From contig JAOSJK010000012.1 of the NCBI GenBank assembly GCA_027494135.1, positions 546,795 to 610,794 of the forward strand: a stretch of 64,000 nucleotides of DNA, given 5' to 3'. The stretch comes from Acidimicrobiia bacterium (GTDB lineage: Bacteria; Actinomycetota; Acidimicrobiia; IMCC26256; PALSA-610). Position numbers and translations under genes: made by a program. The notes under the pieces are model-generated. The model was given only the letters and a program-made list of their open reading frames with translations, did no database searches and was not told where the DNA came from. This document shows positions 13,623-38,414 of the stretch, in pieces. Each line of letters begins with the position of its first letter. Positions within the stretch are counted from its first letter, which is position 1.

Positions 13623-14081
13623 TCAGCCGCGCTGCACCTCGATCCGCGACACCTCCCCCCGCGTGGTGTCGAGCGGCATCCGAACCTCGAGAATCCCGTC
13701 CTTGTAGGTGGCCTTCACGTCGCTCTCGTCGGCGTCGGGCGGGAGCTGCACCACGCGGGAGAACCTGCCGTAGCGGAACTCGCTGCGATAGCGACCCTTC
13801 TCCTCGCTCTTCGTCTCTTCGCGCCGCTCGACGTCGAGCTCTAGCGTGTGGTTCCTCACGTGGATCCGGACGTCCTTGTCGGGGTCGATCCCGGGCATCT
13901 CCGCGCGGACGACCAGCTCGTCGCCCTCCACCTGCTCCTCGACCCTCATCCCCGACTCGACCTCGTCCCAGTGCAGCAGCGACGGCCAACCGCGGGGCCT
14001 GTCGAAGAGCCTCCCCAGCAGAGGTTCCAGCCAGTCGGACCTGCTCTTCTCGATCGACGACTCGCTCATGTCAACTCCCAT
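13623..14081 (-). CDS. Hsp20/alpha-crystallin small heat-shock protein
   Basis: Intact 152 aa with an alpha-crystallin domain (VRAEMPGIDPDKDVRIHV..., ATYKDGILEVRMP). An alternative ATG at 14069 has a GGGAG RBS. Confidence 0.9.
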   Translation of the reverse strand: MGVDMSESSIEKSRSDWLEPLLGRLFDRPRGWPSLLHWDEVESGMRVEEQVEGDELVVRAEMPGIDPDKDVRIHVRNHTLELDVERREETKSEEKGRYRSEFRYGRFSRVVQLPPDADESDVKATYKDGILEVRMPLDTTRGEVSRIEVQRG

Positions 14082-14187
14082 CTACCCACTCCCGGCCCGG
14101 CGCTCCGAGCCCGAACACTCACTCTTCTCTGCCCCGACGATCGCGCCACTCGCCGATCGGAGAAAGTGCCCTTCGCGCAGCGGGCCG

Positions 14188-14202
14188 GGGACCAATGTCA
14201 CC
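14188..14202 (+). promoter_or_regulatory. GGG-N6-GTCACC box A (DosR-box-like)
   Basis: Sequence GGGACCAATGTCACC. It sits in the 260-bp divergent region between hsp20 (start 14081) and the Zn-ribbon ORF (start 14342). Confidence 0.5.
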
Positions 14203-14341
14203 CGAGGCCGACTCTCTCCGGTGCGCCGTGTCCTCCGCGGCCCAGCCCCCTCAGGCGGCACCGGACCGCCCATTCGGGGCGTTCGGCCCTGTGCAGGCCC
14301 AAGGCGCCGCAGGTACGTTCTATACGACCAGGGAGGTCTGC

Positions 14342-14620
14342 ATGAGCACCATCCCGAACGCGCGGCCGGTTAGCGCTCCGAGGCTGGGGACGCTGGTGCG
14401 CTGTCCCGAGTGCCACTCCACGGAGCTCGAGGTCGTGCTCGACGGCTGCAACGTCAACTTCTACTGCGCCTCGTGCATCCGGTGCTGGCACATCGAGCTC
14501 AACCGGGTCGTGAGGATCGACCCGGCGACCTGCTACGGGTGCGCGCACGTCAATGAGTGCTCTGCGCGATTCGCGTCGGACCACCGGGCCGAGATCGAGT
14601 CATCGCCGGTCGGCGCGTAG
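14342..14620 (+). CDS. Small Cys-rich (zinc-ribbon-like) hypothetical protein
   Basis: ATG at 14342 is preceded by a GGGAGG RBS. The 92-aa product has CPEC...CASCIRC...CYGC...C motifs. The ORF-track start at 14195 lies in junk sequence. Confidence 0.6.
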   Translation: MSTIPNARPVSAPRLGTLVRCPECHSTELEVVLDGCNVNFYCASCIRCWHIELNRVVRIDPATCYGCAHVNECSARFASDHRAEIESSPVGA

Positions 14621-14685: not shown

Positions 14686-15466
14686 TCATGCAGGGGTCGG
14701 CACCTCCACGACCGGCAACAGCAGCACGGGCACCGGGGACGAGGAGAGAAGCGCACGCACGACGAGTGCGCGTCCGGGCGCCAGATCGCGACCCCATCCG
14801 ACGGCCACGAGATCCGCGTGCACCTCTGGAGACGACATCACGCACAACCTCGGCGGGGTTGCCGACCCTCAGCTCAAGCCTCAGCCCCTCGCTCTCGACG
14901 GGGGAGAACCTGTCGAGGAACTCCTCGGTCCACACCTCGGTGTCGTAGACCGCCGAGTCGCTGAATGCGGGCAGCGAGGACGTCTCGAAGACGTGCAGGC
15001 CGATCAGCTCGGGACCGTCGAGCGCCACAACGGGACCCAGCAGAGCCCGCAGCGCGCGGGTCGTCGAACCGCGGCCGTCGAGAGGTACCAGGACGCGCTC
15101 GACCGGGTCGACCTGTGTCACGGCCGGCGACACCACCAGGACCGGCTTGTCGACCGCCCGGATCAGCTCGAGAGCGACGTGCCCGGCCGGCTGCGGCCCC
15201 GTAGGCAGGCCACGGCAGCCCACCGCCACCGCGACGACGTCGGCATCAGTCGATGCCTCGACGATGCACGCGGTGGGATCGCCCTTCATCGCGCGGAGGG
15301 GTAGGCCCGCTACACCCGCCACCCCACCAGCCGTCTCTCCCGACCCGTTCTCGTGTACGTGGAGCGCGACGACATCGGCATCCAGAAGGAGCGCGAGGTC
15401 CCCGGCCGCATTGGCGACGCAGCGCGCCGCCGCCGAGTCGTCCAGAGCCGCCAACACGATGGCCAT
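14686..15466 (-). pseudogene. Tandem universal stress protein (2x USP domain); one frame break near the 3' end
   Basis: ATG at 15466 (MAIVLAALDDS...). After ...GNPAEVVRDVVS, a shift near 14833 restores EVHADLVAVGWGRDLAPGRALVVRALLSSSPVPVLLLPV with a stop at 14686. Confidence 0.8.
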
Positions 15467-15468
15467 CG

Positions 15469-18400
15469 TTACCCCTCTCTGAGCCGCGCAGCGCCGCGCG
15501 CGGCGTCGGGGAGCGCGAACTCGCTCACTCCCGCCCCCAAGTCTGCAACCTCGCCCGCGACCTCCACCCGCGCGCCTCCATCGGCGGTAAGACGGACCGA
15601 ACCGGGCTCCACGCGCACGCGAATCGCCGTGCCGCGGTAGCGGACGCGAACGTCGAGCGCGCTCCACGCCGTGGGCAGCCGAGGGTCTACAACGAGACGG
15701 TCGTCCCTCGCGCGCAGCCCGGCGAATCCGAACACGAGCGCCTGCCAGACGCTCCCCATCGCCGCGAGGTGCACGCCGCCGGCACCCGTCGCGGTCAGGT
15801 CATCGAGATCTATGCGCGCCGCGAGCCGCAGCGCCGCGACCGCGCCGTCCGTCATGCCGGCTCTAGCGAACAACGACGCGTGGACACCTGGTGACAGCGA
15901 CGAGCCGTGAGCCGTTCGCGGCTCGTAGTACTCGAGGTTCGGTACCAGCGAGTCGGGGGCCACCTCGTCGGGCACGAGGTGATGGAGCATCAAGACGTCG
16001 GCCTGCTTCACGACCTGCGAGCCCCGGACGCGCTCCCGCCCCAGCAGCAGGTCGGCCGTGATCGGTCGGCGGGGCGCAACCTCGGCGATGATCAGTGGCT
16101 CCAGGCCGTAGAAGCCTGCGAACTGCTCGTAGATGCCGGTGCGGCCGTCGTAGCCGTCGACCAGCGACTCGGCAAGATCCAGCCAGTGGCGCCGTTCGTC
16201 GCCGGACACCCCCGCACACGTTTGCGACACCTCCGCAGCGCGCCGGAGGTTCCAGCGCGCCATGACATTCGTGAACGCGCTGTCGTCGACCGGCTCGTGA
16301 TACTCGTCGGGACCGATCACCCCGTAGAGGTGCCCGGCCCCCGTGGTGTCGCGGCGGATGCGCGACGCCCAGAAGCGTGCCGTCTCTGCGAGCAGCTCGC
16401 AACCTGGGCCGGCGGCGAACTCCTCGTCACCGGTCCAGTCGATGTACAAGGCGGCCGCCCACGCCACCTGCGCCGTGATGTGCAGCTCGTCCTCTCCGGT
16501 GCGGATGGGCACCACCTGGCCCGCCCGGTCGCGTCCCGACCTGGGAGTCACGTCGTCGCCGCCGTCGGCCGACTCCCAGGGGAATCGGGCACCCGCAACG
16601 CCCGCCGCTCTCGCGGCATCGCGGGCCGTTGCAAGACGGCGGACCCGGTACTCGAGCATCGCCCGCGCCGCGCCCGGATGGGTGGCAGCGAGGAAGGGCA
16701 GGACGAAGGTGTCGGCGTCCCAGAACACGTGGCCGCGGTATGCGTGACCGGTGAGCCCACGCGCCCCGACCGCAGCCTCTCCGTGGTCGGCGGCGGAGCC
16801 CATCAGATGGAAGAGCGCGAGGCGCGTAGCTAGCTGGAGATCCTCGTCTCCCTCGATCGCGATATCGGCGCTCTCCCACCGAGCGGCCCACGCGCGACGA
16901 TGCTCCGCGAGCAGCACCTCGTAGCCGACCGACTCCGCGCGCTCGACGAGTGCGATCGACTCATCTCGCCGATCACCCCTCGCGCCCCTCGTGTACGCAA
17001 CGAACCGATCGACCGAGCCGGCGCCCCCGTCCGCTCCTCGATCGCCGCCGCGGTGACGGATTGGCGGGAGCCGCTCACCGTCATCCAGTGAACGCTCCCC
17101 TGGCTCCCCTCGGCTGCGCCGCCGCGCCCGGGAGGCACGAGCGGAGTGGAACCTTCGAGGCCCCTCCCTTCGCCGGCGGCACGCAGCACCGCCGTCCCGG
17201 GTCGCGCCAGCGACGAGAAGCGCAGGGCCGTGAATCCGCCCCTCGGGCCTTCGACCTCGTCGCCGAGCAGGCCGGCGCGCAGGTCGAGGACCCTGCGGAG
17301 CCGCTCGTCGGGCGCCAGGGCACCTGGCACCCGGTCCCAGAGTGGCGCGGCGAGGAGGTCGATCTGCGGACCGTCGCCGTCGTAGGCGCCCGCGACCAGG
17401 ACACTCGGGGTCGCCTCGTCGTGCCCGGAGGACGGGGGCGCCCGACGTTCCCATGAAGCCGTCGGCGATCGTCATCAGCGCCTCCCGTGACCTCTCACGG
17501 TTCGCGCCGACCCCGTCGACCACCATCGTCCAGCCGACTGTCTCGCCGGCCCGTGGCACCGCACGGGCTACGCGGCGCCGCACCTGATCGGCGAGGACCG
17601 CGCAGAACACGTCCGGACCTCCCGCGAGGTGGAGCACACCGTCGGGGACTCCTCTGGGCTCGACGCCGACCGAGAAGGCCGTCGCACCGCTCGCCTCCCC
17701 CACGAGCATGAGCGAGTCGCTCCCCGCCACACCCCCCCAGCGGACCGATCTCGTCCCCTGCGACGAGGACCAGTCCGGGAGCGACTCCGCGCCGCCACAG
17801 GTCTCCGAAGACGTACCGCGTGGAGTCGGACTTGTCGGTGAGCCCGATCTCCACGTGCTTCGCGTCGCTCGTCACACGCGGATCAGCGACACCTGATTCG
17901 CGCGCGCTCTGTAGAGCGAGGTCCACCACCTCCGGAAGACCTGCGAGTTCGGCGTCGCGGAGCCGCGCCTCCACCGCGGCGAGGAGCTCGTCGATGTGCG
18001 CCTTCGGTGGGTCCTCCCACTCCGGCAACGGGATGAGATCGATCTTGCGCCGGTTCAGCCGCTGGGAGACGATCGTCGCCTCGAGGCCGTGCTCCGCGAG
18101 CCTGGCCACAGTGAGTTCTGCTGCGCGGTCGAGGGCGGCCTCCTCCTCGGGCGTCGCCTCCCGCCGCTCCACGACTACCGGACCGTCGGGCCCGACCTCG
18201 AAGGTCTCCGACCCGCGGTTGAGGGCCAGTAGGAGCCGGCCCGGCCCGGTCGGTCGAGCGCAGAGCTGACCGTCGATGTTGCCGACGTGCGTGCCGCTGA
18301 CGACGACGACGTCGGCACCCAGCGAGCAGAGCTCCTCGACAAGGCCCCTGACCCGCGACGCGTCGGCGTCACGATCGGGTACCGCGGTACCGTCCCAGTC

Positions 18401-18508
18401 GAATACGACGGCCTCGAACCTCCGCTGCAACGGCGGCGGCAGGTGCAGACCCACGGCGACATCGCCCCCGGAGCCGCTCTGGAGGTACGCGGCGCCTACG
18501 GGTATCAA
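15469..18508 (-). pseudogene. HAD-phosphatase + GH65 glycoside hydrolase/phosphorylase fusion (OtsB1/Rv2006-like architecture); three frame breaks
   Basis: The HAD N-terminus (FDWDGT) is in ORF 17495..18508. GH65 is in ORF 15469..17730, with a middle piece in ORF 16830..17330. Breaks lie in the C7 run 17732-17738, G5 run 17434-17438 and C5 run 17024-17028. Confidence 0.8.
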
Positions 18509-18514
18509 GTCACC
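18500..18514 (+). promoter_or_regulatory. GGG-N6-GTCACC box E
   Basis: Sequence GGGTATCAAGTCACC. It spans the receiver stop codon (18510-18512) and the 5' end of the HAD-GH65 ORF. Confidence 0.4.
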
Positions 18515-19035
18515 CGTTCACGCGAAGGGCCGAGAGCGCCCTCGAGGCCGTCGCCGGCTCCACGGCGAGTGCCGCGCCGAGCGCCGCACGCAGTGCGCCG
18601 GCCGTGACGGGCTTGTGGATCACGTCGTCTACGCACACGTCGGGAGCGAGACGGGAGATGCTGGTCGCATGGGTCAGCGCCACGACACGCGCCGGGCGTG
18701 GGCCGCGCGAGAGGCGCCGCAGCAGGTCGACCCCGCCTGCGCCGGGGAGGAACACCTCCAGGAGGAGCAGGTCGACCCGCTCCCTCTCGAGGTGGTCGAG
18801 AGCCTGGTACACGTCGGGGGAGTCCGACGACTGCGACCCCCACGTCGAGAACGGACCGGACCGCTATCGCGGTTCCGGGATCATCGTCGACGACCAGGAC
18901 GTGGGGCGACCGGAGGGCCGATTCGACTGCGGCGGGGCCTACTCTCCGGCCTCGCAGCAGCACCGCCCCATGGCCTCCCGCCTGAGCGATCGCCAGCGCG
19001 TCTGGCGCCAGTGCATCGTTGACTCCGGTGCGCAA
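18510..19035 (-). pseudogene. Stand-alone response-regulator receiver domain protein (no output domain); one frame break
   Basis: HVLVVDDDPGTAIAVRSVLDVGVAVV is in ORF 18505..19035. It continues as SDSPDVYQALDHLERERVDLLLLEVFLPG...IHKPV in ORF 18510..18812. The break is near 18830. Confidence 0.7.
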
Positions 19036-19152
19036 AGCCCACCCCTCCCCCTGCGTGCGTCTGTCGCTCGAGGGTAGTCACGGCTCCCCTTTCCCACGGC
19101 CGCCGCATTCCGCCGTCGTCACAACCTAAGGGCGTCGGGCCCCGAGATGGCA

Positions 19153-19167
19153 GGGCCATTCGTCACC
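19153..19167 (+). promoter_or_regulatory. GGG-N6-GTCACC box D
   Basis: Sequence GGGCCATTCGTCACC. It lies 118 bp upstream of the receiver gene start (19035) and just downstream of the 21-bp hairpin. Confidence 0.45.
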
Positions 19168-19195
19168 CCTGCGCCGTCGAATGTCGCCACCCGAC

Positions 19196-19242
19196 CACGA
19201 GCGTCGATAGACCACAATATGTGTGGTCTATCGACGCTCGTG
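19196..19242. terminator. Perfect 21-bp inverted repeat with a 5-nt AT-rich loop (intrinsic-terminator-like or operator)
   Basis: Sequence CACGAGCGTCGATAGACCACA-ATATG-TGTGGTCTATCGACGCTCGTG. The repaired DUF1918 stop codon (19228-19230) lies in the right arm. There is no U-tract on either side. Confidence 0.55.
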
Positions 19243-19426
19243 CCGGTCGGGGGTCACGTGGGCGTCGGAGCCGGGGGAAGAAGATCGACTCGTGGCCGTC
19301 GTCCCAGCGGATGCGGTAGTGGACCGCTCCGCCCTCGTCGAGGACCTCGAGCACCTCGCCGCTGCGGCGGGGGTCCCCCAGGTGCGGCCCGTCGACGACG
19401 ATCTCGTCACCCGCGCTGGCATGCAT
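19228..19426 (-). pseudogene. DUF1918-domain protein (Rv0569-like); one frame break
   Basis: ATG at 19426 has a GGGAGG RBS. The product reads MHASAGDEIVVDGPHLGDPRRSGEVLEVLDEGGAVHYRIRWDDGHESIFFP. Removing one base from the G5 run 19273-19277 gives GSDAHVTPDRHERR* as the C-terminus. Confidence 0.7.
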
Positions 19427-19499
19427 GTCGGACCTCCCTAGTGCCACGGCCTCTTCATTGGCCACCCCGAGCCTCCCCGCGCGGGCGCGTCACGGCAAG

Positions 19500-19514
19500 G
19501 GGTCCAAAGTCACC
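19500..19514 (+). promoter_or_regulatory. GGG-N6-GTCACC box B
   Basis: Sequence GGGTCCAAAGTCACC. It sits in the divergent region between DUF1918 (start 19426) and the APH+AAA gene (start ~19670). Confidence 0.5.
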
Positions 19515-19669: not shown

Positions 19670-21235
19670 GTGCACGCAGCCGGCGCGTGGTGGACGGAGA
19701 GCGAGGGGGAGGCACGGGTGGAAGACGGGGCGATCGTCGAGCCGGACACCCGCGCCGCGCTTGTCGGCTGGCTCCTCCGGCGCGGCGACGCCCCGGAGAT
19801 CGTCGAGACGCACGTCTCCGTGCTCGGCTTCCAGGGCGACCGCGCTTACAAGGCGAAGAAGGCCGTCTGCTTCGACTTCCTCGACCTGTCCACCTCCGAG
19901 CTGCGGGCCGCCGCCTGCGAGCGCGAGGTCTCGCTCAATCAGAGGCTTGCGCCCGACGTCTACCTGGGCACCGTCGACATCACCGACGCCGACGGCCTGG
20001 TCGTCGAACGAGCCGTCGAGATGCGGCGGATGCCCGCCGCCCGCCGTCTCGCGACGCTGGTGCGGAGCGGAGTCGATGCCGGCCCCTGCATCGACTCCGT
20101 CGCCGAGACCGTCGCCCGATTCCATGCGCTCGCCGAACGGTCGGAGACCATCTCCGCCACTGCCCGGCGCGACGCGATCGCCGACCTATGGGAACGGGGC
20201 TTCGCCGAGACGCGCCCCTTCGTCGGGTCCGTGCTCGACGCCGAGGTCGCCGACCGCGTCGAGCTGCTCGCACGCCGCTACCTCGCCGGGCGCGACCCGC
20301 TCTTCGAGTCGCGGATCGTCTCAGGGCGCATCTGCGACGGCCACGGCGACCTACTCGCCGACGACGTCTTCTGCCTCGACGACGGCCCGCGCATCCTCGA
20401 CTGTCTCGAGTTCGACGACCGACTCCCGGAGCGGCGACGTGCTGGCCGACGTCGCGTTCCTCGCCATGGACCTCGAGCTACTGGGGCGGCCCGACCTGGC
20501 GAAGAGGTTCATCGACCGCTACCGCGCTCACACGTCCGACACCTGGCCGGCCTCGCTCGAGCACCACTACATCGCGTATCGAGCCCACGTTCGCGCCAAG
20601 GTCGCGGCCTGCGCCACGGTCAGGGTGATCCGGCGGCCGCGGACCGCGCACGGGTGCGCTTCGCTCTCGCCGCAGCCCACCTCGAGGCGCAGCGCGTGCG
20701 CCTGGTGCTCGTCGGTGGTCTTCCCGGTACCGGAAAGTCGACCCTCGCAGCTGCGCTGGCCGCCCACACCGGTGCGGCGCTCGAGCGAAGCGACGTGACG
20801 CGCAAAGCGATGGCGGGCCTCGCCGCGACCCACCGCACCGGCGATCGCGAGTCCGAGGGGCTCTACGCTCCCAACGTCACCGACGCCGTCTACCGAGGCC
20901 TCCTCGACACGGCACGCGGGCGCCTCGCCGGCGGCGAGAGCGTGATCCTCGACGCGTCGTGGGCCGGCGCCGCCCACCGTCGCGCCGCCGAGCGGATCGC
21001 GCGCGACACGGCGTCCGATCTGTTGCAGATCCGCTGCGAGGCGATGTCGGATGTGGCGGCGGCGAGGATCTCGCTGCGCGCCGCCGAAGGCGCCGACCCG
21101 TCGGACGCGTCTGTTGCTGTTGCGACCGCGATGGCGCAGAGATTCGAACCCTGGCCCGACGCCGCCACCCTCGACACCACCTCGCTCTCCCCCGAGGCGA
21201 CGCTCGAGCGCGCCGTCGGACTCCTGCCCCCCTGA
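19670..21235 (+). pseudogene. Phosphotransferase (APH-like) + AAA/P-loop kinase fusion (Rv2004c-like architecture); two frame breaks
   Basis: The N- and C-terminal parts are in ORF 19670..21235 (GLPGTGKST Walker A). The middle (SGDVLADVAFLAMDL...HHYIAYRAHVRAKVA) is in the frame of ORF 19425..20798. Breaks lie near 20425 and 20615. Confidence 0.7.
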
Positions 21236-25257: not shown

Positions 25258-25272
25258 GGTGACCTAGTGCCC
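25258..25272 (-). promoter_or_regulatory. GGG-N6-GTCACC box C (reverse orientation)
   Basis: The minus strand reads GGGCACTAGGTCACC. It sits in the 217-bp gap between the PRTase fusion and the CBS-M50 protease gene. Confidence 0.45.
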
Positions 25273-25314
25273 TGGGCGGGGAGCGTCCCGCGCGGGCAAG
25301 ATTATGTCCCTGAT

Positions 25315-25353
25315 GACCTACACAACTGCGACCTACACAACTGCGACCTACAC
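25315..25353. repeat. 15-bp tandem direct repeat x2.6 (GACCTACACAACTGC)
   Basis: Two exact copies plus a 9-nt partial third copy. The patch is relatively AT-rich and lies 28-66 bp upstream of the likely protease start. Confidence 0.9.
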
Positions 25354-25380
25354 GCCGGCGACCACACCGGTGGCAGGGAG

Positions 25381-29391: not shown

Positions 29392-30236
29392 CAGCGACCG
29401 CCACCGCCACGGGTCCCATGGCCCCCATGGTCCCGCACCGTTACCGAGTCGTCTCGCGCCATACCGAGACCTCCGACACCGTGACGATCCACGTCGAGCC
29501 GCTCGGCGACCCGATCGACGCGCCGCGGCCCGGTCAGTTCGCGATGCTCTGGGCCTTCGGCATCGGTGAGGTCCCGATCTCGTTCTCCGGTCTTCCCGGC
29601 GACGGGCGGCTCGGCCACACCATCCGCGCAGTCGGGACCGCCACCTCCGCCCTCGCGGCATCGGAGCCTGGAACGGTCATAGGCGTACGCGGCCCCTTCG
29701 GCAACGGCTGGGACGTCGGCGACGCCGACGGCGGCGACGTCATGATCGTCGCCGGGGGTCTCGGGCTCGCACCGCTACGCCCCGCCGTAGACGCCGTCCT
29801 CGCAGAGCGTGATCGGTACCGCCGCGCCGTGCTGCTGATCGGCACGCGCTCCCCCGACGATCTGATGTTCCACGACGACCTCGCTCGCTGGCGCGGCCGT
29901 CTCGACCTCGACGTGCAGGTAACCGTCGATGCGGCCGACACCGGCTGGCACGGCGACGTCGGCGTCGTCACCACCCTCATCGGTCGCGTGCCGGTCGAAC
30001 CGGGCAACACGTTGGCACTCGTCTGCGGACCCGAGGTGATGATGCGCTTCACCACCCGTTCGCTGATCGACCGCGGCCTCGATGCCGAACGCATCCGCGT
30101 CTCCCTGGAGCGCAACATGCAGTGCGGGGTCGGGCACTGCGGGCACTGCCAGCTCGGACCCGAGCTGGTCTGTCTCGACGGACCCGTCTTCGCCTGGAGT
30201 CGCGTCGCAGCCCAGTCCGCGGTCCGCGAGCGATGA
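29388..30236 (+). CDS. hyhG: Group 3b hydrogenase gamma subunit-like FAD/NAD(P)-binding oxidoreductase with a C-terminal 2Fe-2S motif (AsrB/HydG-like)
   Basis: The GTG at 29388 overlaps the upstream stop (GTGA). It has a ferredoxin-reductase-type fold pattern ([22 protein letters not shown]) and a C-terminal [10 protein letters not shown]. Confidence 0.75.
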
Positions 30237-31024
30237 GCACCGACAAGCCCTCCGTCGCCGTGTGGAAGTTCGCCTCGTGCGACGGCTGTCAGCTCACGCT
30301 CCTCGACTGCGAAGACGAGCTCCTCGAGGTCGCCGGCGAGGTCGCGCTGGCGTACTTCCTCGAGGCGGGTCTCACCTCCGTGCGTGGCTCGTACGCACTC
30401 TCGCTCGTCGAGGGATCGATAACGACTGCCGACGACGCACGCCGCATCCAGGAGGTCCGACAGGCCTCCCGGACGCTCGTGACGATCGGCGCGTGCGCCA
30501 CCGCGGGAGGGATCCAGGCACTCCGCAACTTCTCCGAGGTCGACGAGTTCCGCTCCATCGTCTACGCCCACCCGGAGTTCGTCGAGACGCTCGGTACGTC
30601 GACACCCATCTCGGCTCACGTTCGCGTCGACCTCGAGCTGAGGGGGTGCCCGATCTCGAAGGCACAGCTCGTCGAGACGATCAGCGCCTTCCTGCACGGG
30701 CGGCGGCCCAACATCTCCGGCCGGAGCGTCTGCTCGGAGTGCAAGGAGCGTGGCAACGTCTGCGTCACCGTCGCGGGCGGAACGCCGTGCCTGGGCCCGA
30801 TCACGCACGCAGGGTGCGAGGCCCTCTGTCCCGCCTACCACCGCGGGTGCTACGGCTGCTACGGCCCCGCGGACACGACGAACGCACCGTCGCTGGTAGT
30901 GAGACTCCGCGAGGGAGGCATGGCCGACGACGACATCGTGCGTGTCCTACGCACCTTCAACGCCTACGCCGACGACTTCCGCGACGCGAGCGAGGCCGTC
31001 GCCGCAGGCAAGGGGGCGGAGTGA
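30233..31024 (+). CDS. hyhS: [NiFe]-hydrogenase small (delta) subunit, NuoB/20-kDa-like
   Basis: ATGA overlap at 30233. The sequence shows [24 protein letters not shown] and C-terminal Cys clusters ([22 protein letters not shown]). Confidence 0.8.
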
Positions 31025-32326
31025 CCCACCGAAGCCCCGCGAGCCGCACGCTGGAGGTCAAGGCCCTCGCCCGCGTGGAGGGCGAGGGCGCGATGTTCGT
31101 CGAGATCCGCGACGGAGCGGTTCACGACGTCCAGCTGCGCATCTACGAGCCACCCCGCTTCTTCGAGGCGTTCCTACGAGGTCGCAGCTACACCGAACCA
31201 CCCGACATCACGGCCCGGATCTGCGGGATCTGTCCCGTCGCGTATCAGATGAGTGCAGTGCAGGCCATCGAGGCCGCGTGCGGGATCACAGTGGACGGAG
31301 CGCTGCGCGACCTGCGCCTGCTGCTGTACTTCGGCGAGTGGATCGAGAGCCATGCTCTCCACGTGTACATGCTTCACGCCCCCGACTTCCTCGGCTACGA
31401 GAGCGCTATCGCCCTCGCCGCCGACCACCGTCCGATCGTCGAGCGAGGTCTTGCCCTCAAGAAGACCGGGAACGACCTGGTCGACGTAATCGGAGGGCGC
31501 GCAGTGCACCCCCGTCAATGTGCGCGTCGGTGGCTTCTACCGGGTGCCGACCAAGCGCGAGCTGCAGCCCCTGTCCGAGAGCCTCCGGCGGGCGCGTGAT
31601 GCCGCCCACGCGACCGTCACGTGGGTCGCCGGCTTCGACTTCCCCGACTTCGAGCACGACCACGAGCTGGTCGCGCTTCGCCACCCCGAGGAGTACGCGA
31701 TCCTCGACGGCCGCCTGGTCTCCACCCTCGGCCTCGATGCGGGGCCCGACGAGTACGAAGGTCACTTCGCAGAGGAGCACGTCGAGCGTTCCACCGCGCT
31801 CCATTCCCGGATCCTCGAGCGGGGCCACTACCTGGCCGGGCCCCTGGCGCGCTACTCCCTCAACTCCGACAAGCTCGCTCCCGTCGCCCGTGAGGCCGCC
31901 GCGGAGGCAGGCCTGGGTACCGAGTGCCGCAACCCCTTCCGCAGCATCGTCGTGCGGAGCGTCGAGATCCTGCACGCCTGCGACGAGGCGCTCCGCGTGA
32001 TCGAGCGCTACGAGCCACCCGGCTCCCCTGCGGTCGAGGTAGCCCCGCGTGCTGGTGCGGGCTGTGGCTGGAGCGAGGCTCCGCGCGGCCTTCTCTGGCA
32101 TCGCTACGAGCTCGACGCCGCCGGCGTCATCCAGGATGCTCGGATCGTGCCACCGACCTCGCAGAACCAGCCGACTATCGAGCACGACCTCTGGCACTTC
32201 GTGGAGTCACACCTCCACCTCGATGACGACGAGCTGCGGATCAGGTGTGAGCAGGCAATCCGGAACTACGACCCGTGCATCTCCTGTGCCACGCACTTTC
32301 TCGACCTCGTCGTGGAGCGCTCGTGA
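31021..32326 (+). pseudogene. hyhL: [NiFe]-hydrogenase large (alpha) subunit, group 3b-like; one frame break
   Basis: GTGA overlap at 31021. The N-terminal Ni-binding motif [10 protein letters not shown] and the C-terminal DPCISCATH are both present. The frame breaks in the C5 run 31509-31513, joining ORF 30082..31599 to ORF 31520..32326. Confidence 0.85.
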
Positions 32327-32886
32327 GGGGCGGCGGGCTCCGGGCGGCCATTCGAGGTCACGGCGGCAACTCCCCCGCGAGCGGTGCGCGCGGAGAACCG
32401 TCCCCACGCATCGTCGTGATCGGGATCGGGAATGCCTTCCGCGGCGATGACGGCGCCGGGCTCGCAGTCGTCCGCGCAGCACGGTCTCTACTGCCGGCGA
32501 CAGTCGAGGTGATCGAGCTCGACGGCGAACCGGCGCGGCTCGTGGAGTCATGGGACGGCGCCGCGGCTGCCTTCGTCGTCGATGCGGTGCGCAGCGGCTC
32601 TTCCGCCGGCTCCGTCCATCGCTACGACGCCACCGAGGAGCGACTACCCCGATGGGAACCGTCCGGCGGCAGTCACTCGCTCGGCGCTGCCGCCGCCGTC
32701 GACCTCGCGCGCTCCCTCGACCGCCTACCAGCTCATCTGATCGTCTACGGCGTCGAGGGCGCCGACTTCGACAACGGGGTCGGCCTGACTCCGGCGGTGG
32801 CGTCGGCTGTGCCTCAGGCCGCGACCCGCATCGCGGAAGAGGCCGGAGCCGTCCTGCACCGCCTCGAGACGCGCGGGGGGCGGTGA
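32323..32886 (+). CDS. Hydrogenase maturation endopeptidase (HyaD/HybD/HycI family)
   Basis: GTGA overlap at 32323. The sequence shows [16 protein letters not shown] and GGSHSLG motifs. Confidence 0.8.
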
Positions 32887-32889
32887 ACC

Positions 32890-33135
32890 GTGTGCCTCTC
32901 ACACGCCGGGCGAGTTTTCGAGGTCGACGCGGCGAGGCACGAAGCCGTCGTCGATGTCGACGGCGGCCTCCGCACCGTCTCCCTGGCCGTCCTGACCCTC
33001 GACGGTCACGAAGTTGCCGTCGGCGAGTGGGTGCTCGTCCACACCGGCTTCGCGATGGAGGTGCTCGACCCCGCTGCCGCCGCCGACCTCGTTGCACTTC
33101 ATCGCGAAGTCACTGCGTTCGGGGAGACTGGTTGA
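32890..33135 (+). CDS. hypC: Hydrogenase assembly chaperone HypC/HupF
   Basis: 81 aa. It starts M-C-L (GTG 32890) and has the typical WVLVHTGFA motif. Confidence 0.85.
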   Translation: MCLSHAGRVFEVDAARHEAVVDVDGGLRTVSLAVLTLDGHEVAVGEWVLVHTGFAMEVLDPAAAADLVALHREVTAFGETG

Positions 33136-33139
33136 GACC

Positions 33140-34132
33140 ATGGACAAGGAAGGGCACCGCATGAGTCGTCCGGTCCCGACACGGCGCGCCGCTTCGTACG
33201 GGCTCGCACTCGCGTTCTTCGCAGCGCTCGTGAGCGGAGTGTCCGTCTTCGTGAACTCGTACGGCGTGAAGCGGGTCCCGAACCCCACCGTCTACACGAC
33301 GGCGAAGAACCTGGTCGCCGCCGTCATCCTGCTCGGCCTGCTTGTGGTTGCCTCCCGCGCGAGGCCCGGTGAGGGCTGGTCCCGACCATCGACGAGACGC
33401 GAGTGGACAGGGCTCGCCGCCGTGGCGCTTCTCGGCGGGAGCATCCCGTTCGTGCTCTTCTTCGAGGGGATCGCCCGCGCATCGTCCACCGACGCCCAGT
33501 TCGTCCACAAGACGCTGGTCGTGTGGGTGGCGCTCCTGGCCGTCCCGATCCTCGGCGAGCGCGTCGGCGGCCTCCATGTCGCGGCGGTCGCCCTGCTGGT
33601 AGTGGGGCAGGCAGAGATCGTCGGCGGGATTCCGACCATCGGCGAGAGCGGCCGAGGGGAGGCGATGATCCTCGCCGCGACCCTCCTCTGGTCCGTCGAG
33701 GTGGTGGTCGCGAAGCGCCTGCTCACCTCCGTCTCGCCGGCGACCCTCGCGGCGGCGCGGATGGCAGCGGGGAGCCTCGTGCTCGTGGCATGGCTCGGCG
33801 CAACGGGGCGGATCGACGACCTCGTCGGGCTGTCGGCCTCGGGCTGGGGGTGGGCGGCGCTCACCGGCACCCTGCTCACGCTCTACGTCGCTACCTGGTA
33901 CTCCGCGCTCGCCCGCGCACAGGCCGTCGACGTCACCGCGGTGCTCATGGCCGCCGTGCTGGTCACGTTCGCCCTGGACTCCGTGGTGAACGGCAGGGCA
34001 CTGGCCCCGCAGCGCACCGGTCTGCTCGTGATCCTCGCCGGCAGCGCAGTAGCGGGCACGGCGGCGTGGATCACGGCCCGGCGCGCCGCGCCGGCGGAGG
34101 TCGGGAGCGCGCCAGGTGCGGCCTCCCCATGA
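33140..34132 (+). CDS. EamA/DMT-family transporter
   Basis: ATG at 33140 (alternative 33161) within ORF 33014..34132. About ten hydrophobic segments form two EamA-like halves. Confidence 0.75.
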   Translation: MDKEGHRMSRPVPTRRAASYGLALAFFAALVSGVSVFVNSYGVKRVPNPTVYTTAKNLVAAVILLGLLVVASRARPGEGWSRPSTRREWTGLAAVALLGGSIPFVLFFEGIARASSTDAQFVHKTLVVWVALLAVPILGERVGGLHVAAVALLVVGQAEIVGGIPTIGESGRGEAMILAATLLWSVEVVVAKRLLTSVSPATLAAARMAAGSLVLVAWLGATGRIDDLVGLSASGWGWAALTGTLLTLYVATWYSALARAQAVDVTAVLMAAVLVTFALDSVVNGRALAPQRTGLLVILAGSAVAGTAAWITARRAAPAEVGSAPGAASP

Positions 34133-34923
34133 GACGACCGGAGCCGGGCGCTGCAGCCGGAGACGACGGCGCGATCCGCTTCGCGCGCTACGCCTATCCG
34201 CCCAACGCGCTGGGGCTCTGCGGGCCCGACGACTACGGTGCGCTCCTGGAGTACGGCGCCGGAGGCATCTCCGACGGTGGGCTGCAGCAGCTCGCCCGGT
34301 GCTTCGAAGGTGCATGGCCGTACCTGGAGCTGATCGCCGGGGCGAACGGCATCGACGACCCCCTCGACGCGCGCGTCGTCGAGGCCTACTGGACGGGCAA
34401 CAGCCTCCTGGCCGGCGTGACCCCGCTCGTGCTCGGTTCCTCGCTCGAGGAGCGCTTCCGCGGCCCCGCGGGGAGAGACTGGAGCCGCCTGGCAGCGGCG
34501 ATCCCGCACGCACCGCTCCCACATCACGGCTTCCACGTCTTCGCCGTCTACCCGTGGACGGGACTGCTTCGCAGCGGGGCGGCCGGTGAGGCGCTGCGCG
34601 TCCTCGACCGTTGTCGCATCCGGTGGGGCTCCGTCGTCTCCGTCGAGAGTGCAACTGCCGTCGTGCGATCGCGTCCGCTGCGCTGGGACGGCTGCAAGCT
34701 CTCCCTCGACGCGTCGGTACCGGAGACGGCCATCACGGCCGATCGCGGTTACGGCCTTGCCGGGCCGATCGCACCGGGCGACCACGTCGCTCTGCACTGG
34801 GACTGGGTGTGCGAACGTCTCACTCCGGCTCGACTCCGGTGGCTGCGCCGCCTCACGGCCTCGCAGCTCGACCTCGTGAACGGTCGCCTCGCACACTCCC
34901 CCGCGGCGGCCGTCCTGGGATAG
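34129..34923 (+). CDS. Conserved hypothetical protein, translationally coupled to the EamA gene
   Basis: ATGA overlap at 34129. The 264-aa product has ordinary composition (FARYAYPPNALGLCGPDD...). I cannot name a family with confidence. Confidence 0.6.
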   Translation: MRRPEPGAAAGDDGAIRFARYAYPPNALGLCGPDDYGALLEYGAGGISDGGLQQLARCFEGAWPYLELIAGANGIDDPLDARVVEAYWTGNSLLAGVTPLVLGSSLEERFRGPAGRDWSRLAAAIPHAPLPHHGFHVFAVYPWTGLLRSGAAGEALRVLDRCRIRWGSVVSVESATAVVRSRPLRWDGCKLSLDASVPETAITADRGYGLAGPIAPGDHVALHWDWVCERLTPARLRWLRRLTASQLDLVNGRLAHSPAAAVLG

Positions 34924-34958
34924 CGCGCGGCGCACCGCCGGACGGTTACCGTGCGCCC

Positions 34959-35939
34959 ATGCTCCGCGCCTGGCGGTACACCGAGGGGGCTCCCGGCAGG
35001 ACCGACGTCGCCGCCGACGCGCTCACGGGCCCGCGCCCGGCCGGGTCGTTCCTCTGGGTCGACATCGAGCACCCGGAGACCGGCGAGATCGAGCACGCGG
35101 CGGAGGCGCTCGGCGTCCATCACATCGCGGCCGAGGACCTGGCCCACGCCGGACAGCGCACCAAGCTCGAGCACTACTCCGACCACCGCCACGTCGCCGT
35201 GCACGACATGGCCCTCGACGAAGCAGGCGTGCTCGCCGACGGGGAGATCGACATCGTCTTCGGCGACGGGTGGCTGCTCACCGTCCGCCACTCGCGCGAT
35301 GGGCTCGACGCGGCGCCGATCGACTCTGTCGTGGAGCGCTTCGAGCGCCAGCGGGTGGAGCATGGCTCGAGCGACGAGGGCTTCGCGATCTGGTCGATAC
35401 TCGACGACGTCGTCGACCGGTACTTCGTCCTTCTCGACGCCGTGGACGACTACCTCGACGGAATCGAGGAGGCTGTCTTCGCTCCGGACTCCGCCGATCA
35501 CCCGCCGCAGGCGGCTTTCGCGCTGCGACGGACCCTGGTGGCGTTCCGTCGCACCGCCTCGCCGATGCGCGAAGTCGTCTCGGCTCTGCTGCGACGCGAA
35601 GCACCCGAGATCGGCGACGCTGCGATACCGCACCTGCAGGACGTGTACGACCACGTGCTCCGTGCGCTCGACCTCCTCGAGTCTCAGAGGGAGCTGCTGT
35701 CCGGCCTACTGGAGGCCCAGCTCTCCGTTGCGTCGATGCGGATGAACCGCGTGATGAAGGCGACGTCGTCGTGGGGCGCGATCCTCGTCGTGAACACCCT
35801 CATCACCGGCGTGTACGGCATGAACTTCCGGCACATGCCCGAGCTGCACTGGTACCTCGGCTATCCCCTGGCGCTCGCAGCCATGGCCGTCGCCACGGTC
35901 GTCCTGTACGTGATGTTCCGGCGGCGCGACTGGCTGTGA
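34959..35939 (+). CDS. corA: CorA-family divalent metal (Mg/Co/Ni) transporter
   Basis: ATG at 34959 within ORF 34611..35939. The signature YGMNF is followed by two C-terminal TM helices. Confidence 0.85.
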   Translation: MLRAWRYTEGAPGRTDVAADALTGPRPAGSFLWVDIEHPETGEIEHAAEALGVHHIAAEDLAHAGQRTKLEHYSDHRHVAVHDMALDEAGVLADGEIDIVFGDGWLLTVRHSRDGLDAAPIDSVVERFERQRVEHGSSDEGFAIWSILDDVVDRYFVLLDAVDDYLDGIEEAVFAPDSADHPPQAAFALRRTLVAFRRTASPMREVVSALLRREAPEIGDAAIPHLQDVYDHVLRALDLLESQRELLSGLLEAQLSVASMRMNRVMKATSSWGAILVVNTLITGVYGMNFRHMPELHWYLGYPLALAAMAVATVVLYVMFRRRDWL

Positions 35940-35969
35940 CCCGCTACCGGGCATCGCCCCCCGGGTCGT

Positions 35970-38414
35970 TCACCTCTCGGTGCGTCGAACCGAGCGACGC
36001 GTCGCGATGACCCCGCCGAAGCGTGGCGTGCGTTCGGCCGCCGGGAGCCTGTGCTGCTGCGCAGTCCAGCCGACCTCGAGCAGGACGACCGCCGACGCCG
36101 CCACCACGACGCCCCACACGAGCGCCTCCCACTCCGGGAGGTCCAGGGCATAGAAGGTGCGCAGGTCGGGGACGGCGAGTATGACGACGAATGCCGCGAC
36201 CATCCACGTCACCAGGCTCGCCCTCCAACCCGTGATCGGTCTGGCGAGGAGCACCAGGATCCACAGGCCGACGACCAGCAGCACGAGGGTCGCCGTGGTA
36301 CGTGACTCGTCGAGCCCCACTCCGGCCCCCACCCTCGCGGTCGCGTACGCACCGAAGGTCGCCGTCGACGCCACCATGCCCACGGGCAGTGCGAACTTGA
36401 GGACACGCCTCACGAACCCGGGCACGTAGCGGCGTGGGTTCGGGGCGAGCGCCAGGAAGAACGCGGGGATGCCGATCGAGAGGCTGCTGACGATGGTGAG
36501 GTGCCTCGGCAGGAACGGGTACGGCCAGCGCGCCACTCCGACTGCTATGGCCAGGAGCATCGCGTAGACGGTCTTGGTGACGAAGAGGTTCGCCACCCGC
36601 TCGATGTTCGCGATGACGCGACGCCCCTCTGCGACCACACCGGGCATCGTCGCGAACTTGCCGTCGAGCAGGACGATCTGGGCGACCGCGCGGGTCGCCG
36701 GAGCCCCACTACCCATCGCGATGCCGATGTCGGCGTCCTTCAGCGCCAGCGCATCGTTGACGCCGTCGCCCGTCATCGCCACGACGTGTCCGCGCGACTG
36801 CAGCGCAGCGACCATCGCCCGCTTCTGGTGCGGCGTGACCCGCCCGAAGACGCTGTGGGTCTCCAGCACCTCGGCCAGAGCCTCCATCTCGTCGGGTAGC
36901 TCGCGAGCGTCGTAGCCCCCGTCAGCGTCGGGGAGTCCGACCCGGCGCGCAACCGCCGCCACCGTGAGGGGGCTGTCGCCCGAGATCACCTTCAGGGCCA
37001 CGCCCTGCTCGGTGAAGTAGCGCAACGTGTCCGCTGCGTCCGGCCTGACCTTCTCCTCGAAGAGCACCAGCGCGGTAGGGCTCAGTCCTGACGGCAGTCG
37101 CTCCCCATCGAGCGCCTCGCCCGTTCGAGCGAGCAGCAGCACGCGCCTCCCCTCGGATGCGAGCGCCTCGGCGCGCCTGCGTACCGAATCCCAGTCACCG
37201 TCCGGCCCGGTGACCATCTCCGGCGCGCCGATGACCCAGGTTCCCCTTTCTCCGAAGGAGGCGGCGCTCCACTTCCGCGCCGACGAGAACGGCACCGACC
37301 CGGTCCGCTCCCACCCCTCGGGGGCGGGGAACGCCGTGCAGAGAGCCGACATGGTCGCATTGCGGTGCTCGTCCGACGCGAGGGCGCCGAGCGCAGCGGC
37401 CACCGGGTCGGGGTCGGTGAAGGCCTCGATCTCGTCGAACGCGATGCTCCCCTCGGTCAGGGTCCCGGTCTTGTCGAGGCACACGACGTCGACGCGTGCG
37501 AGGCCCTCGACCGCCGGCAGCTCCTGCACCAGGACCTTGCGGCGCGCGAGCGAGACGGCCGCGACGGCGAAGGCAAGGCTCGTGAGCAGGACGAGCCCCT
37601 CTGGGACCATCGCCACCACGCCTGCCACGACGCCGGATACCGCCTCGCGCCAGCCGGAATGCGCTCGGAACTGGCTGACAGCGAGGAGGGCCGCCGTAGG
37701 AAGGAGCGCGTAGGTCACGAACCGCAGGATCGTGTTGAGCCCCTCCGCGAGCTCGGTTCGGACGAGCGTGAATCGTCGTGCCTCCGCCGCGAGCCTGCAG
37801 GCATATGCGTCGGCGCCCACCCCGGTCGCCTGGAACCGCCCGTGGCCGGCCACGACGAAGCTCCCCGAGAGCACCCTCTCGTCGGGCCCCTTGTGAACGG
37901 GGTCCGACTCGCCGGTGAGCAGGGACTCGTCGACCTCGAGGCCCTCGGCCGTGTGTACCGTGCCGTCGGCCGGAACCTGGTCGCCGGTACGCAGCTCGAG
38001 GAGGTCGTCGAGGACCACCTCCTCGACGGCCATCTCGCGCACGATCCCGCCCCGCACGACACGCGCGCGCGGCGCATTGAGCACCGCGAGACGGTCGAGG
38101 GTCCGCTTCGCCCTCAGCTCCTGCACTATGCCGATCAGGGCGTTGGAGACGAGAACGATTCCGAAGAGAGCGTCCTGGATCGGCCCAACCACGAGGATGA
38201 TGGCGAGCATCGACCCCAGAATCGCGTTGAAGCGCGTGAACACGTTCGCCTTCACGATCTCGGTGAGAGTGCGACTCGAGCGCCTACCGGTGTCGTTGAC
38301 CTCGCCGCGCTCGATCCGCTCCTGCACCTCGGCATCGGAGAGCCCGTCGTGGCCCGTCACCCACTCGGAGGCGTCCCGACCGTCGCTCTCGATCCTCGGC
38401 GTGCCCACTGCCAT
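35970..38414 (-). CDS. Cation-translocating P-type ATPase (P2/HAD-IC type, CtpF-like)
   Basis: ATG at 38414, intact 814 aa. Motifs: TGES, CLDKTGTLT, MTGDGVNDALALK. Confidence 0.85.
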   Translation of the reverse strand: MAVGTPRIESDGRDASEWVTGHDGLSDAEVQERIERGEVNDTGRRSSRTLTEIVKANVFTRFNAILGSMLAIILVVGPIQDALFGIVLVSNALIGIVQELRAKRTLDRLAVLNAPRARVVRGGIVREMAVEEVVLDDLLELRTGDQVPADGTVHTAEGLEVDESLLTGESDPVHKGPDERVLSGSFVVAGHGRFQATGVGADAYACRLAAEARRFTLVRTELAEGLNTILRFVTYALLPTAALLAVSQFRAHSGWREAVSGVVAGVVAMVPEGLVLLTSLAFAVAAVSLARRKVLVQELPAVEGLARVDVVCLDKTGTLTEGSIAFDEIEAFTDPDPVAAALGALASDEHRNATMSALCTAFPAPEGWERTGSVPFSSARKWSAASFGERGTWVIGAPEMVTGPDGDWDSVRRRAEALASEGRRVLLLARTGEALDGERLPSGLSPTALVLFEEKVRPDAADTLRYFTEQGVALKVISGDSPLTVAAVARRVGLPDADGGYDARELPDEMEALAEVLETHSVFGRVTPHQKRAMVAALQSRGHVVAMTGDGVNDALALKDADIGIAMGSGAPATRAVAQIVLLDGKFATMPGVVAEGRRVIANIERVANLFVTKTVYAMLLAIAVGVARWPYPFLPRHLTIVSSLSIGIPAFFLALAPNPRRYVPGFVRRVLKFALPVGMVASTATFGAYATARVGAGVGLDESRTTATLVLLVVGLWILVLLARPITGWRASLVTWMVAAFVVILAVPDLRTFYALDLPEWEALVWGVVVAASAVVLLEVGWTAQQHRLPAAERTPRFGGVIATRRSVRRTER

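Follow-up and report, generated by a model that had tools for sequence, protein, structure and literature searches.

Does an uncultured member of the Acidimicrobiia hold, in one island of about 25 kb, the hypoxia and dormancy genes that Mycobacterium tuberculosis keeps scattered under the control of DosR? The question is raised by a window of 64,000 nucleotides (nt), the whole stretch of DNA that was analysed, which belongs to a metagenome-derived Acidimicrobiia genome assembled from long reads and in which an initial annotation had recognised such genes side by side. Judged from its sequence, the island is probably a hypoxia or energy-limitation ("dormancy") regulon of the DosR/DevR-OsdR type, whose regulator would be encoded elsewhere and would act through recurring operator-like boxes. 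By analogy, it would be the counterpart of the MSMEG_3926-3955 cluster of Mycobacterium smegmatis and of the SCO0167-0219 region of Streptomyces coelicolor.

Open reading frames (ORFs) were picked by the GC content of the third codon position (GC3) and then scanned against Pfam. The genes fall into two modules. Module A, on the minus strand, comprises Hsp20, a universal stress protein (USP) with a HAD-GH65 fusion, a receiver and a DUF1918 protein, with a Zn-ribbon gene divergent from Hsp20; module B, on the plus strand, consists of about 17 tightly packed, operon-like genes running from an APH-AAA fusion through CorA, followed by a convergent P-type ATPase. Checks against Pfam, NCBIfam, the PDB and structure models recovered the families named in the initial annotation at or near the positions it had assigned, the HAD part on motif I only. 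In what follows, loci from relatives are cited by number (L001 and L002 belong to a Microflora Danica genome), and L021, L023 and L024 are short-read Logan contigs from runs SRR25580095-97 of the same strain. The features are:

13623..14081, minus strand: Hsp20/alpha-crystallin chaperone, HspX-like (Pfam HSP20, 1e-18)
14339..14620, plus strand: Cys-rich Zn-ribbon protein of about 88-93 aa, divergent from Hsp20 (GC3 0.89)
14690..15469, minus strand: tandem USP (Pfam Usp in two stretches; assembly frameshift near 14850)
15472..18508, minus strand: fusion of a HAD-like N-terminal part with GH65, about 1010 aa (three assembly frameshifts)
18513..19035, minus strand: stand-alone receiver of about 165 aa (Pfam Response_reg)
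19229..19426, minus strand: DUF1918 protein of the Rv0569/Rv2302 family (Pfam DUF1918, 3.9e-19)
19670..21235, plus strand: APH-like kinase fused to a P-loop (AAA_33) kinase, true product 505 aa (two compensating assembly frameshifts; intact in L023)
21464..23770, plus strand: phosphoenolpyruvate (PEP) synthase, PpsA (pyruvate, water dikinase), 768 aa (PPDK_N, PEP-utilizers, PEP-utilizers_C; frameshift near 22850; intact in L023)
23779..25163, plus strand: fusion of a phosphoribosyltransferase (PRTase) with an alpha/beta (dienelactone-type) hydrolase, Rv0571c-type architecture (intact, 461 aa, in L023)
25321..26526, plus strand: M50 site-2-type metalloprotease with two CBS domains, Rv2625c-type architecture (Pfam Peptidase_M50, CBS)
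26560..27653, plus strand: probable Balon-family ribosome hibernation factor (eRF1-like, baeRF3), 364 aa (Pfam baeRF_family3; frameshift near 27472)
27757..33135, plus strand: group 3b [NiFe]-hydrogenase operon for HyhB, a cyclic-nucleotide-binding protein, HyhG, HyhS, HyhL, the HycI protease and HypC (Pfam; intact in L023 and L024)
28924..29391, plus strand: the cyclic-nucleotide-binding protein of that operon, 155 aa, between the hydrogenase beta and gamma genes and overlapping both
33150..35939, plus strand: EamA transporter, DUF6390 protein and CorA Mg/Co channel (Pfam; packed tightly behind the hydrogenase, in the same order in L001)
35970..38474, minus strand: P-type cation ATPase, type II/III (Pfam; convergent to module B)
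47725..48645, plus strand: carbamate kinase, 9 kb beyond the island (432 bits on NF009008, cut-off 361)
2586..3999, plus strand: wax ester synthase/diacylglycerol acyltransferase (WS/DGAT) family acyltransferase (Pfam)

At the level of families and architectures, the predicted gene content overlaps regulons that have been defined experimentally. In M. tuberculosis the genes of the DosR regulon are scattered, whereas here they are contiguous; family-level counterparts in the window include HspX, Rv0569 (DUF1918), the Rv0571c, Rv2625c and Rv2629 superfamilies and a P-type ATPase. The three-gene neighbourhood of the Rv2004c, Rv2005c and Rv2006 types, which we take to be APH-AAA, tandem USP and HAD-GH65 architectures respectively, is likewise kept. 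In further support, only six core DosR targets are predicted in M. abscessus, and the orthologue of Rv2004c is among them. Hyd3 is absent from M. tuberculosis, as is a PEP synthase under DosR control, while the window has both families.

Both are found in M. smegmatis, where hypoxia induces a contiguous 31-gene cluster, MSMEG_3926-3955, adjoining DevR and DevS (Berney and Cook 2010, PMC2799521). This cluster encodes a Pma1-type ATPase, HycI, the alpha, delta, gamma and beta subunits of Hyd3, a 14-kDa antigen and a PEP synthase, together with five USPs, a GAF protein, DevS, DevR, PfkB, a WS/DGAT, a 'trehalose 6-phosphate phosphorylase' (GH65) and many conserved hypotheticals, all of which are induced at 2.5% and 0.6% O2; the PEP synthase, MSMEG_3934, is listed as an exception without a counterpart in the M. 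tuberculosis DosR regulon (PMC2799521). Common to the cluster and the window, at family or architecture level, are Hsp20, USP, GH65, PpsA, Hyd3 with HycI and the P-type ATPase; the window PpsA corresponds to MSMEG_3934, and the best model for the window ATPase matches the annotation of MSMEG_3926 (type IIIA, Pma1-like). The two loci differ in that the M. smegmatis cluster holds DevR and DevS, whereas the window, which comes from another class, has neither. In M. smegmatis, the ATPase stands next to Hyd3 and the WS/DGAT lies inside the cluster, whereas in the window the latter is 10 kb outside the island. The window adds Balon, M50-CBS, PRTase-hydrolase, DUF1918, APH-AAA, the pseudo-receiver, the cyclic-nucleotide-binding gene, EamA, DUF6390 and CorA.

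The S. coelicolor OsdR/OsdK island, SCO0167-SCO0219, encodes USPs alongside an alcohol dehydrogenase and a PEP-family dikinase, and its pyruvate phosphate dikinase gene SCO0208 is a target of OsdR (Urem et al. 2016, PMC5069765). Unlike the window, this island has nitrate reductase at its centre and includes OsdR and OsdK; its dikinase is a pyruvate phosphate dikinase, whereas that of the window is PpsA, and neither a hydrogenase nor Balon, both present here, is reported from it. Two statements of the initial annotation are thereby borne out, namely that the Streptomyces OsdR locus carries a dikinase gene and that the M. smegmatis Hyd3 belongs to a hypoxia-induced DevR cluster. Its list of Rv counterparts stands where families are concerned, since these match families of the DosR regulon, but several of the one-to-one assignments (the eRF1-like protein, the dikinase and the ATPase) reach the superfamily level only. 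Similarly, the genes are contiguous as it had claimed, but this is not new, as MSMEG_3926-3955 and SCO0167-0219 are already contiguous. The consolidation of DosR-type genes, including the pairing of Hyd3, ATPase, HspX and PEP synthase, is established knowledge, and the island reveals no new kind of system.

What ties the genes of the window together is a recurring 16-bp DevR/OsdR-like box, GGTGAC-N4-GnCCCy, present in at least six promoter regions. The shared candidate operator proposed in the initial annotation thus gains substance from conserved boxes before island genes, which resemble palindromic DevR operators and are candidates for that role upstream of the following member genes:

14187..14202, minus strand: box GGTGACATTGGTCCCC, Hsp20/Zn-ribbon divergent promoter, 18.3 bits with a matrix trained on relatives only
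14275-14290: weaker box, Hsp20/Zn-ribbon promoter, second-best match of the OsdR matrix
19152..19167, minus strand: box GGTGACGAATGGCCCT, upstream of the receiver, 17.9 bits, among the top 7 matches of the OsdR matrix
19499..19514, minus strand: box GGTGACTTTGGACCCC, DUF1918/APH-AAA divergent region, 19.4 bits
21324..21339, plus strand: weaker box GCGGACCATCGGCCCT, upstream of the PEP synthase, fourth-best match of the OsdR matrix
25258..25273, plus strand: box GGTGACCTAGTGCCCT, at the start of M50-CBS, 18.6 bits, kept in L001 at 8729
47563..47578, plus strand: near-palindromic box CGGGACCTTGGACCCT, about 147 bp upstream of the carbamate kinase, 17.8 bits

A position weight matrix (PWM) trained solely on sites from relatives was run at a threshold of 15 bits and compared with 100 shuffles. 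It returned five matches in the window (14187, 19152, 19499, 25258 and 47563) against 0.42 expected and a shuffle maximum of 3; all five fall in intergenic DNA, which makes up 6% of the sequence, and with this matrix no box of comparable score was found in coding DNA. The box at 47563 is not orthologous to any of the training sites. Alignments of orthologous promoter regions show boxes unchanged where the intergenic DNA around them has diverged. The block GTGAC[A/G]TTGGTC of the box at 14187 is invariant in the window, L015 and L017; the block upstream of the receiver, GGTGACnAAnnGCCCT, is kept in four lineages, in surroundings that are 51% identical; and that upstream of DUF1918, GTGAC[T/C]TTnnACCCCTTG, is kept in the window, L001, L015 and L017. 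At 21324, the identical 16-mer recurs in L001, within the longest conserved intergenic block.

The box appears, from its sequence, to be a variant of the canonical DevR core, agreeing by a position-by-position count at 13 of 16 positions with the DevR consensus, which we take to be TTSGGGACTWWAGTCCCSAA. Palindromic versions of the form GGGAC...GnCCC are found at the carbamate kinase of the window and in L019, L004 and L007. The operator of OsdR is a palindrome, AGGGCCGATCGGCCCT (PMC5069765), and the window box upstream of the carbamate kinase differs very little from individual OsdR sites such as AGGGACCTTCGGCCCC. A fully independent matrix, built from the OsdR site table in PMC5069765, placed three of its seven top matches at island promoters (binomial estimate ~0.006).

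Relatives link this box to DosR itself. In L008 and L009, tblastn with the DosR sequence Rv3133c as the query identified full-length DosR orthologues that are 57% identical to it. There, dosR lies directly after a carbamate kinase gene on the same strand (L008 2525-5472 (-); L009 6567-8191 (-)), with Balon 3-7 kb away, and the window carbamate kinase is 63-64% identical to these two homologues. The order in L008 is arcA (arginine deiminase)-arcC-dosR, the upstream gene having been scanned in L008 only. Boxes in both loci lie about 95 bp upstream of Balon and also just downstream of dosR; a further box precedes arcA in L008, and an identical one occupies the equivalent spot in L009. The GTGAC variant of the box occurs directly beside DosR orthologues, and the arrangement suggests that DosR autoregulation and anaerobic arginine fermentation are linked. 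Additionally, boxes precede Balon in L005, L006 and L019, Hsp20 in L007 and DUF1918 in L004. In the window, the carbamate kinase has the best box and is followed by DnaE2 in place of dosR; it would appear to be a detached member of the putative regulon. A NarL-type regulator in L003 was considered as a DosR orthologue and set aside, having 36% identity and being paired with a DUF7134-HisKA_3 membrane kinase beside a large FtsX/MacB-type permease gene.

The island is conserved to different extents. From the receiver through to the second ATPase, L001 and L002 have the gene order of the window and every gene is intact; the L001 proteins are 68-94% identical in amino acid sequence to those of the window. 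In L015 and L017, module A is preserved and runs, in locus orientation, DUF1918, P2-type ATPase, receiver, HAD-GH65, USP, Zn-ribbon and Hsp20. The left flank of the window (CAP, VanW, cyclase, PIG-L, YdjC, luciferase-like and thiolase genes) is preserved in them too; an AMP-binding enzyme gene follows DUF1918 there in place of APH-AAA. More distant Actinomycetota loci, found via the Balon gene, combine smaller sets: ATPase, PpsA and Balon in L003; DUF1918, Balon, PRTase-hydrolase and ATPase in L004; APH-AAA, carbamate kinase, DosR, Balon and M50-CBS in L009; Balon and APH-AAA in L014; and PpsA, DUF1918, Balon and PRTase in L019.

Several results weigh against a DosR-type regulon. As the initial annotation had observed, Pfam scans of the GC3-selected ORFs and tblastn with DosR found no NarL/LuxR regulator and no GAF/HisKA_3 (DosS/T-type) kinase in the 64 kb, and none of DosR, DosS and DosT was found in the first 8.6 kb to the right of the window. 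Over the whole window at 11 bits, the OsdR matrix gave 5 matches against 2.4 +/- 1.5 expected, an excess that is not significant, and the canonical DevR core GGGACnnnnGTCCC, allowing one mismatch, is not enriched (6 against 8.5 expected). The left half-site is consistently GTGAC, not the GGGAC of M. tuberculosis, so that a different NarL-type reader is possible. The joining of modules A and B, and with it the 25-kb contiguity, is lineage-specific, because the two are not adjacent in L015 and L017. The Balon homologue is assigned to the AOC03_06830 subfamily, whereas Rv2629 is probably of the MSMEG_1130 subfamily. Finally, DosR regulons diverge strongly between species, those of M. abscessus and M. 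tuberculosis sharing only 6 orthologues.

These points would suit a co-regulated stress or energy-conservation island whose regulator is not DosR, being instead another NarL/LuxR protein or a system that involves the pseudo-receiver or the cyclic-nucleotide-binding protein, with starvation, redox or cAMP as the possible trigger. Besides the missing DosR/DosS and the deviant half-site, such an explanation can call on the conserved pseudo-receiver, which lies inside the island and has a box of its own, and on the cyclic-nucleotide-binding gene in the hydrogenase operon with an adenylate cyclase nearby. It is nevertheless unlikely, since the GTGAC variant also stands directly beside the DosR orthologues of L008 and L009, palindromic GGGAC...GnCCC forms occur at the window carbamate kinase, L019, L004 and L007, and the pseudo-receiver is without a DNA-binding domain. 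The operators of CRP and Rex, tried for the GTGAC half-site, were rejected by eye, as the conserved right half GnCCC fits neither. A bolder form of the same idea, which we regard as improbable, is a lineage without DosRS in which a different regulator, possibly together with the pseudo-receiver, reads the boxes and joins ribosome hibernation by Balon to an H2-evolving hydrogenase and to PEP synthase within a single transcriptional unit. If true, the dormancy programme of actinobacteria would have been rewired here independently of DosR, and the uncharacterised Rv2004c, Rv0571c, Rv2625c and Rv0569 families would be placed in a common pathway.

Common regulation might also be denied altogether, in which case independent operons would simply have remained neighbours and the likeness to DosR would reflect a selective reading of common stress families. 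USP, Hsp20, P-type ATPases and GH65 are indeed very common, modules A and B are apart in L015 and L017, and the initial annotation had itself named synteny in non-dormancy contexts as damaging to its claim. On that count, a Kitasatospora homologue of Balon does sit in an unrelated gene context, but rare architectures (APH-AAA, PRTase-hydrolase, M50-CBS, DUF1918 and Balon) recur together in the five loci L003, L004, L009, L014 and L019. Together with phylogenetically conserved boxes in at least six promoter regions, none comparable in coding DNA, and the close match to an experimentally co-induced M. smegmatis cluster, this makes ordinary conserved synteny very improbable. A recently acquired mobile island is the least credible of all, its only hint being that the adjacency of modules A and B varies between lineages. 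GC is uniform over the island (69-73%, against 66-77% across the entire window), the window holds no tRNA gene, no integrase or transposase family turned up in its Pfam scans, and gene order on the left flank is shared with L015 and L017. A plasmid origin was rejected as well, the comparison with plasmids giving only trivial short matches.

Under the DosR-type reading, we infer what the regulator is, which signal induces the genes and what they do physiologically, as follows. A NarL-family DosR-type regulator, encoded outside the 64 kb, would respond to failure of oxygen supply or respiration, bind the 16-bp boxes in the promoter regions and switch the genes on. Hsp20 would then act as a chaperone and Balon would hibernate ribosomes at the A site, while GH65 would mobilise alpha-glucoside or trehalose reserves and PpsA would regenerate PEP. 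The group 3b hydrogenase (Hyd3b) would dispose of surplus NAD(P)H as H2, carbamate kinase would yield substrate-level ATP from carbamoyl phosphate, and CorA and the P-type ATPase would maintain cation homeostasis.

In the assembly, many genes are broken: codon-position GC shows that numerous genes of the window switch frame part-way. Single-base indels split genes at, for example, 14850, 22850, 23950, 27472 and 31500, as well as at 2990-3110 and across 48.6-64 kb, and the junctions inspected lie at or adjoin C/G runs of 3-5 bases. The short-read contigs L021, L023 and L024 are 99.84-99.98% identical to the window, with 2 substitutions in total and otherwise small gaps, and the RpiB and HyhS proteins are identical between the two sources. 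These contigs encode intact APH-AAA (505 aa), PpsA (768 aa), PRTase-hydrolase (461 aa), M50-CBS (419 aa) and Balon (364 aa), and also intact HyhB, cyclic-nucleotide-binding protein, HyhG, HyhS, HyhL and HycI. Because near-identical contigs of the same strain, and three relatives, carry the genes intact, the frame changes are assembly errors of 1 bp at homopolymers, and the frame repairs made in the initial annotation were justified; pseudogenisation as their cause is ruled out by the intact genes and by the position of the junctions at C/G runs. The deposited long-read genome needs polishing, as its annotations are truncated, for example to a 310-aa Balon fragment.

Within module A, Hsp20 is 48% identical over 93 aa (E 3e-25) to M. 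tuberculosis HspX and has orthologues of 80% identity in L015 and 73% in L017. The Zn-ribbon gene shares with it a divergent promoter holding two boxes. Its product keeps its Cys pattern in L015 and L017, the gene being conserved in L018 too, and it gives only weak Zn_ribbon matches and no confident Pfam family. It is one of several genes, with those for the cyclic-nucleotide-binding protein, HycI, HypC, EamA, DUF6390 and CorA, that the initial annotation had not listed. The tandem USP shares 78% identity with its intact 259-aa counterpart in L015, and no match to it was found in the PDB; it begins at the stop codon of GH65, so the two are probably co-transcribed. The central and C-terminal GH65 domains at 15472-17871(-) are clear (Glyco_hydro_65m 7.6e-98, GH65C in Pfam), and the fusion is intact in L015 (1012 aa) and L017 (1008 aa). 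The HAD part is recognised solely by motif I, FDWDGT, in the N-terminal extension, where Pfam HAD gave no match even at E = 10.

The receiver is most closely related, within the PDB, to Spo0F-type receivers. By inspection, a Glu occupies the expected position of the phospho-acceptor Asp at the end of beta-strand 3, within a motif VDLLLLE[VL]FLPG that is kept in the window, in L015 (5092-5583) and in L017 (5114-5620). With the conserved Asp replaced, it departs from a canonical phospho-accepting response regulator and is probably a pseudo-receiver; Pfam detected no DNA-binding domain in it, and it may act without phosphorylation, together with some partner. The DUF1918 protein closes the module, and its L001 orthologue matches PDB entry 2a7y (Rv2302) at 3e-7.

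In the first half of module B, the C-terminal part of APH-AAA is AAA_33 by Pfam. Pfam APH gave no match in the window protein, even at E = 10, but does match homologues of 55-58% identity, whose record names include 'bifunctional aminoglycoside phosphotransferase/ATP-binding protein'. Foldseek searches with an AlphaFold model (predicted local distance difference test, pLDDT, 90.6) aligned capreomycin phosphotransferase and choline/ethanolamine kinase over ~325-345 columns, which match the N-terminal part outside AAA_33. P-loop kinases, 2rhm among them, aligned over ~190 columns, in keeping with the C-terminal domain. The model thus points to the bifunctional Rv2004c-type architecture in one chain of about 500 aa. 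The dikinase is assigned as a PEP synthase because its L001 orthologue, 84-94% identical, exceeds both NCBIfam equivalog cut-offs (NF005057, 816 bits against 598; TIGR01418, 793 bits against 740). The PRTase-hydrolase gives Pribosyltran at 2e-15, and DLH at a borderline 20.8 bits against a cut-off of 21. M50-CBS is 86% identical to the L001 protein, its start codon being uncertain between 25268 and 25321.

The eRF1-like protein, from its sequence, probably belongs to the Balon (AOC03_06830) family and lies outside the MSMEG_1130 subfamily. It scores 278.6 bits with full-length coverage on NF052287 (the AOC03_06830 model), below the equivalog cut-off of 330, and 33.5 bits against a cut-off of 480 on NF052288 (the MSMEG_1130 model). 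Its sole PDB match is Psychrobacter urativorans Balon, 8rd8_B (E 2.3e-35, residues 5-364), which thus covers the protein in full, with no mycobacterial chain among matches at E < 0.01. Balon homologues, Rv2629 included, are hypoxia-induced and inhibit translation, and their genes sit in stress operons, often beside Hsp20, one mycobacterial copy lying beside hypoxia-response genes (Helena-Bueno et al. 2024, PMC10901736). In the window, the gene sits between M50-CBS and the hydrogenase, and no RaiA was found near it.

The hydrogenase carries the Pfam domains Fer4_22, NAD_binding_1 with DHODB_Fe-S_bind, Oxidored_q6, NiFeSe_Hases, HycI and HypC. The beta and alpha subunits of L001, the two tested against NCBIfam, have sulfhydrogenase HydB/ShyB and ShyA/HydA as their best models, below the equivalog cut-offs. 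With its four subunits, sulfhydrogenase similarity and endopeptidase, it is predicted to be a group 3b (HyhBGSL) enzyme. The cyclic-nucleotide-binding gene within it is kept in L001 and in the short-read contigs, whereas no such gene is listed between MSMEG_3930 and 3931 of the M. smegmatis Hyd3; its product may place the hydrogenase under cAMP/cGMP control. Adenylate/guanylate cyclase genes flank the region, at 8931-10169 (-) in the window and at 4677-5822 in L021, just past the right end, and may bear on this subunit.

In the window and in L001 alike, EamA and DUF6390 (33150-34920) abut HypC almost without a gap, which would suit genes of the hydrogenase transcription unit; DUF6390 has, to our knowledge, no known function. 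CorA scores 215.6 bits on TIGR00383 (cut-off 200.75). For the convergent ATPase, the best PDB match is the Listeria Ca2+-ATPase (2e-59), which we take to be of the CtpF-like class, and the best NCBIfam model is a type IIIA (Pma1-like) H+-ATPase, below cut-off; by sequence, it stands equally near to both types. L001 (357-2972 (+)), L015 (2289-4895 (-)) and L017 (2231-4825 (-)) have an extra P2-type (Ca2+/SERCA-like) ATPase between receiver and DUF1918, which the window lacks. This extra pump fits the CtpF class, presumably one of Ca2+-type pumps, better than the window's own ATPase does.

Outside the island, the WS/DGAT that the initial annotation had placed nearby is indeed present, although about 10 kb away behind unrelated genes, and its sole box candidate is poor, with 5 mismatches. 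The intervening flank is syntenic in L015 and L017, both of which end short of WS/DGAT, and a link of this gene to the island is doubtful. To the right, 38465-45686 holds a Zn-dependent alcohol dehydrogenase, a fusion of GNAT with an ADP-forming acyl-CoA synthetase-like part, a rhomboid protease, a PhoU/TrkA-C protein and MgtE, and no strong box was found there. The order of the fusion, with GNAT N-terminal, is presumably typical of actinobacterial PatA-type protein acetyltransferases, and MgtE and CorA together form a notable concentration of Mg2+ transport genes. Directly after the carbamate kinase, at 48590-55900 (-), lies a mutagenesis cassette of ImuA' (Rv3395c-like), a Y-family polymerase-like protein (probably ImuB) and DnaE2, with many frameshift errors.

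A literature search found no paper naming both Acidimicrobiia and DosR. With this island, hypoxia islands of the DosR/OsdR type, described in Mycobacteriales and Streptomyces, would have a counterpart in Acidimicrobiia, suggesting that the DosR/OsdR programme is old within Actinomycetota. It also offers guilt by association for four uncharacterised families of the DosR regulon, as APH-AAA (Rv2004c), PRTase-hydrolase (Rv0571c), M50-CBS (Rv2625c) and DUF1918 (Rv0569) types are packed together with PEP synthase, Balon and a fermentative hydrogenase, an arrangement kept in L001, and this packing narrows the hypotheses on their roles in mycobacteria.

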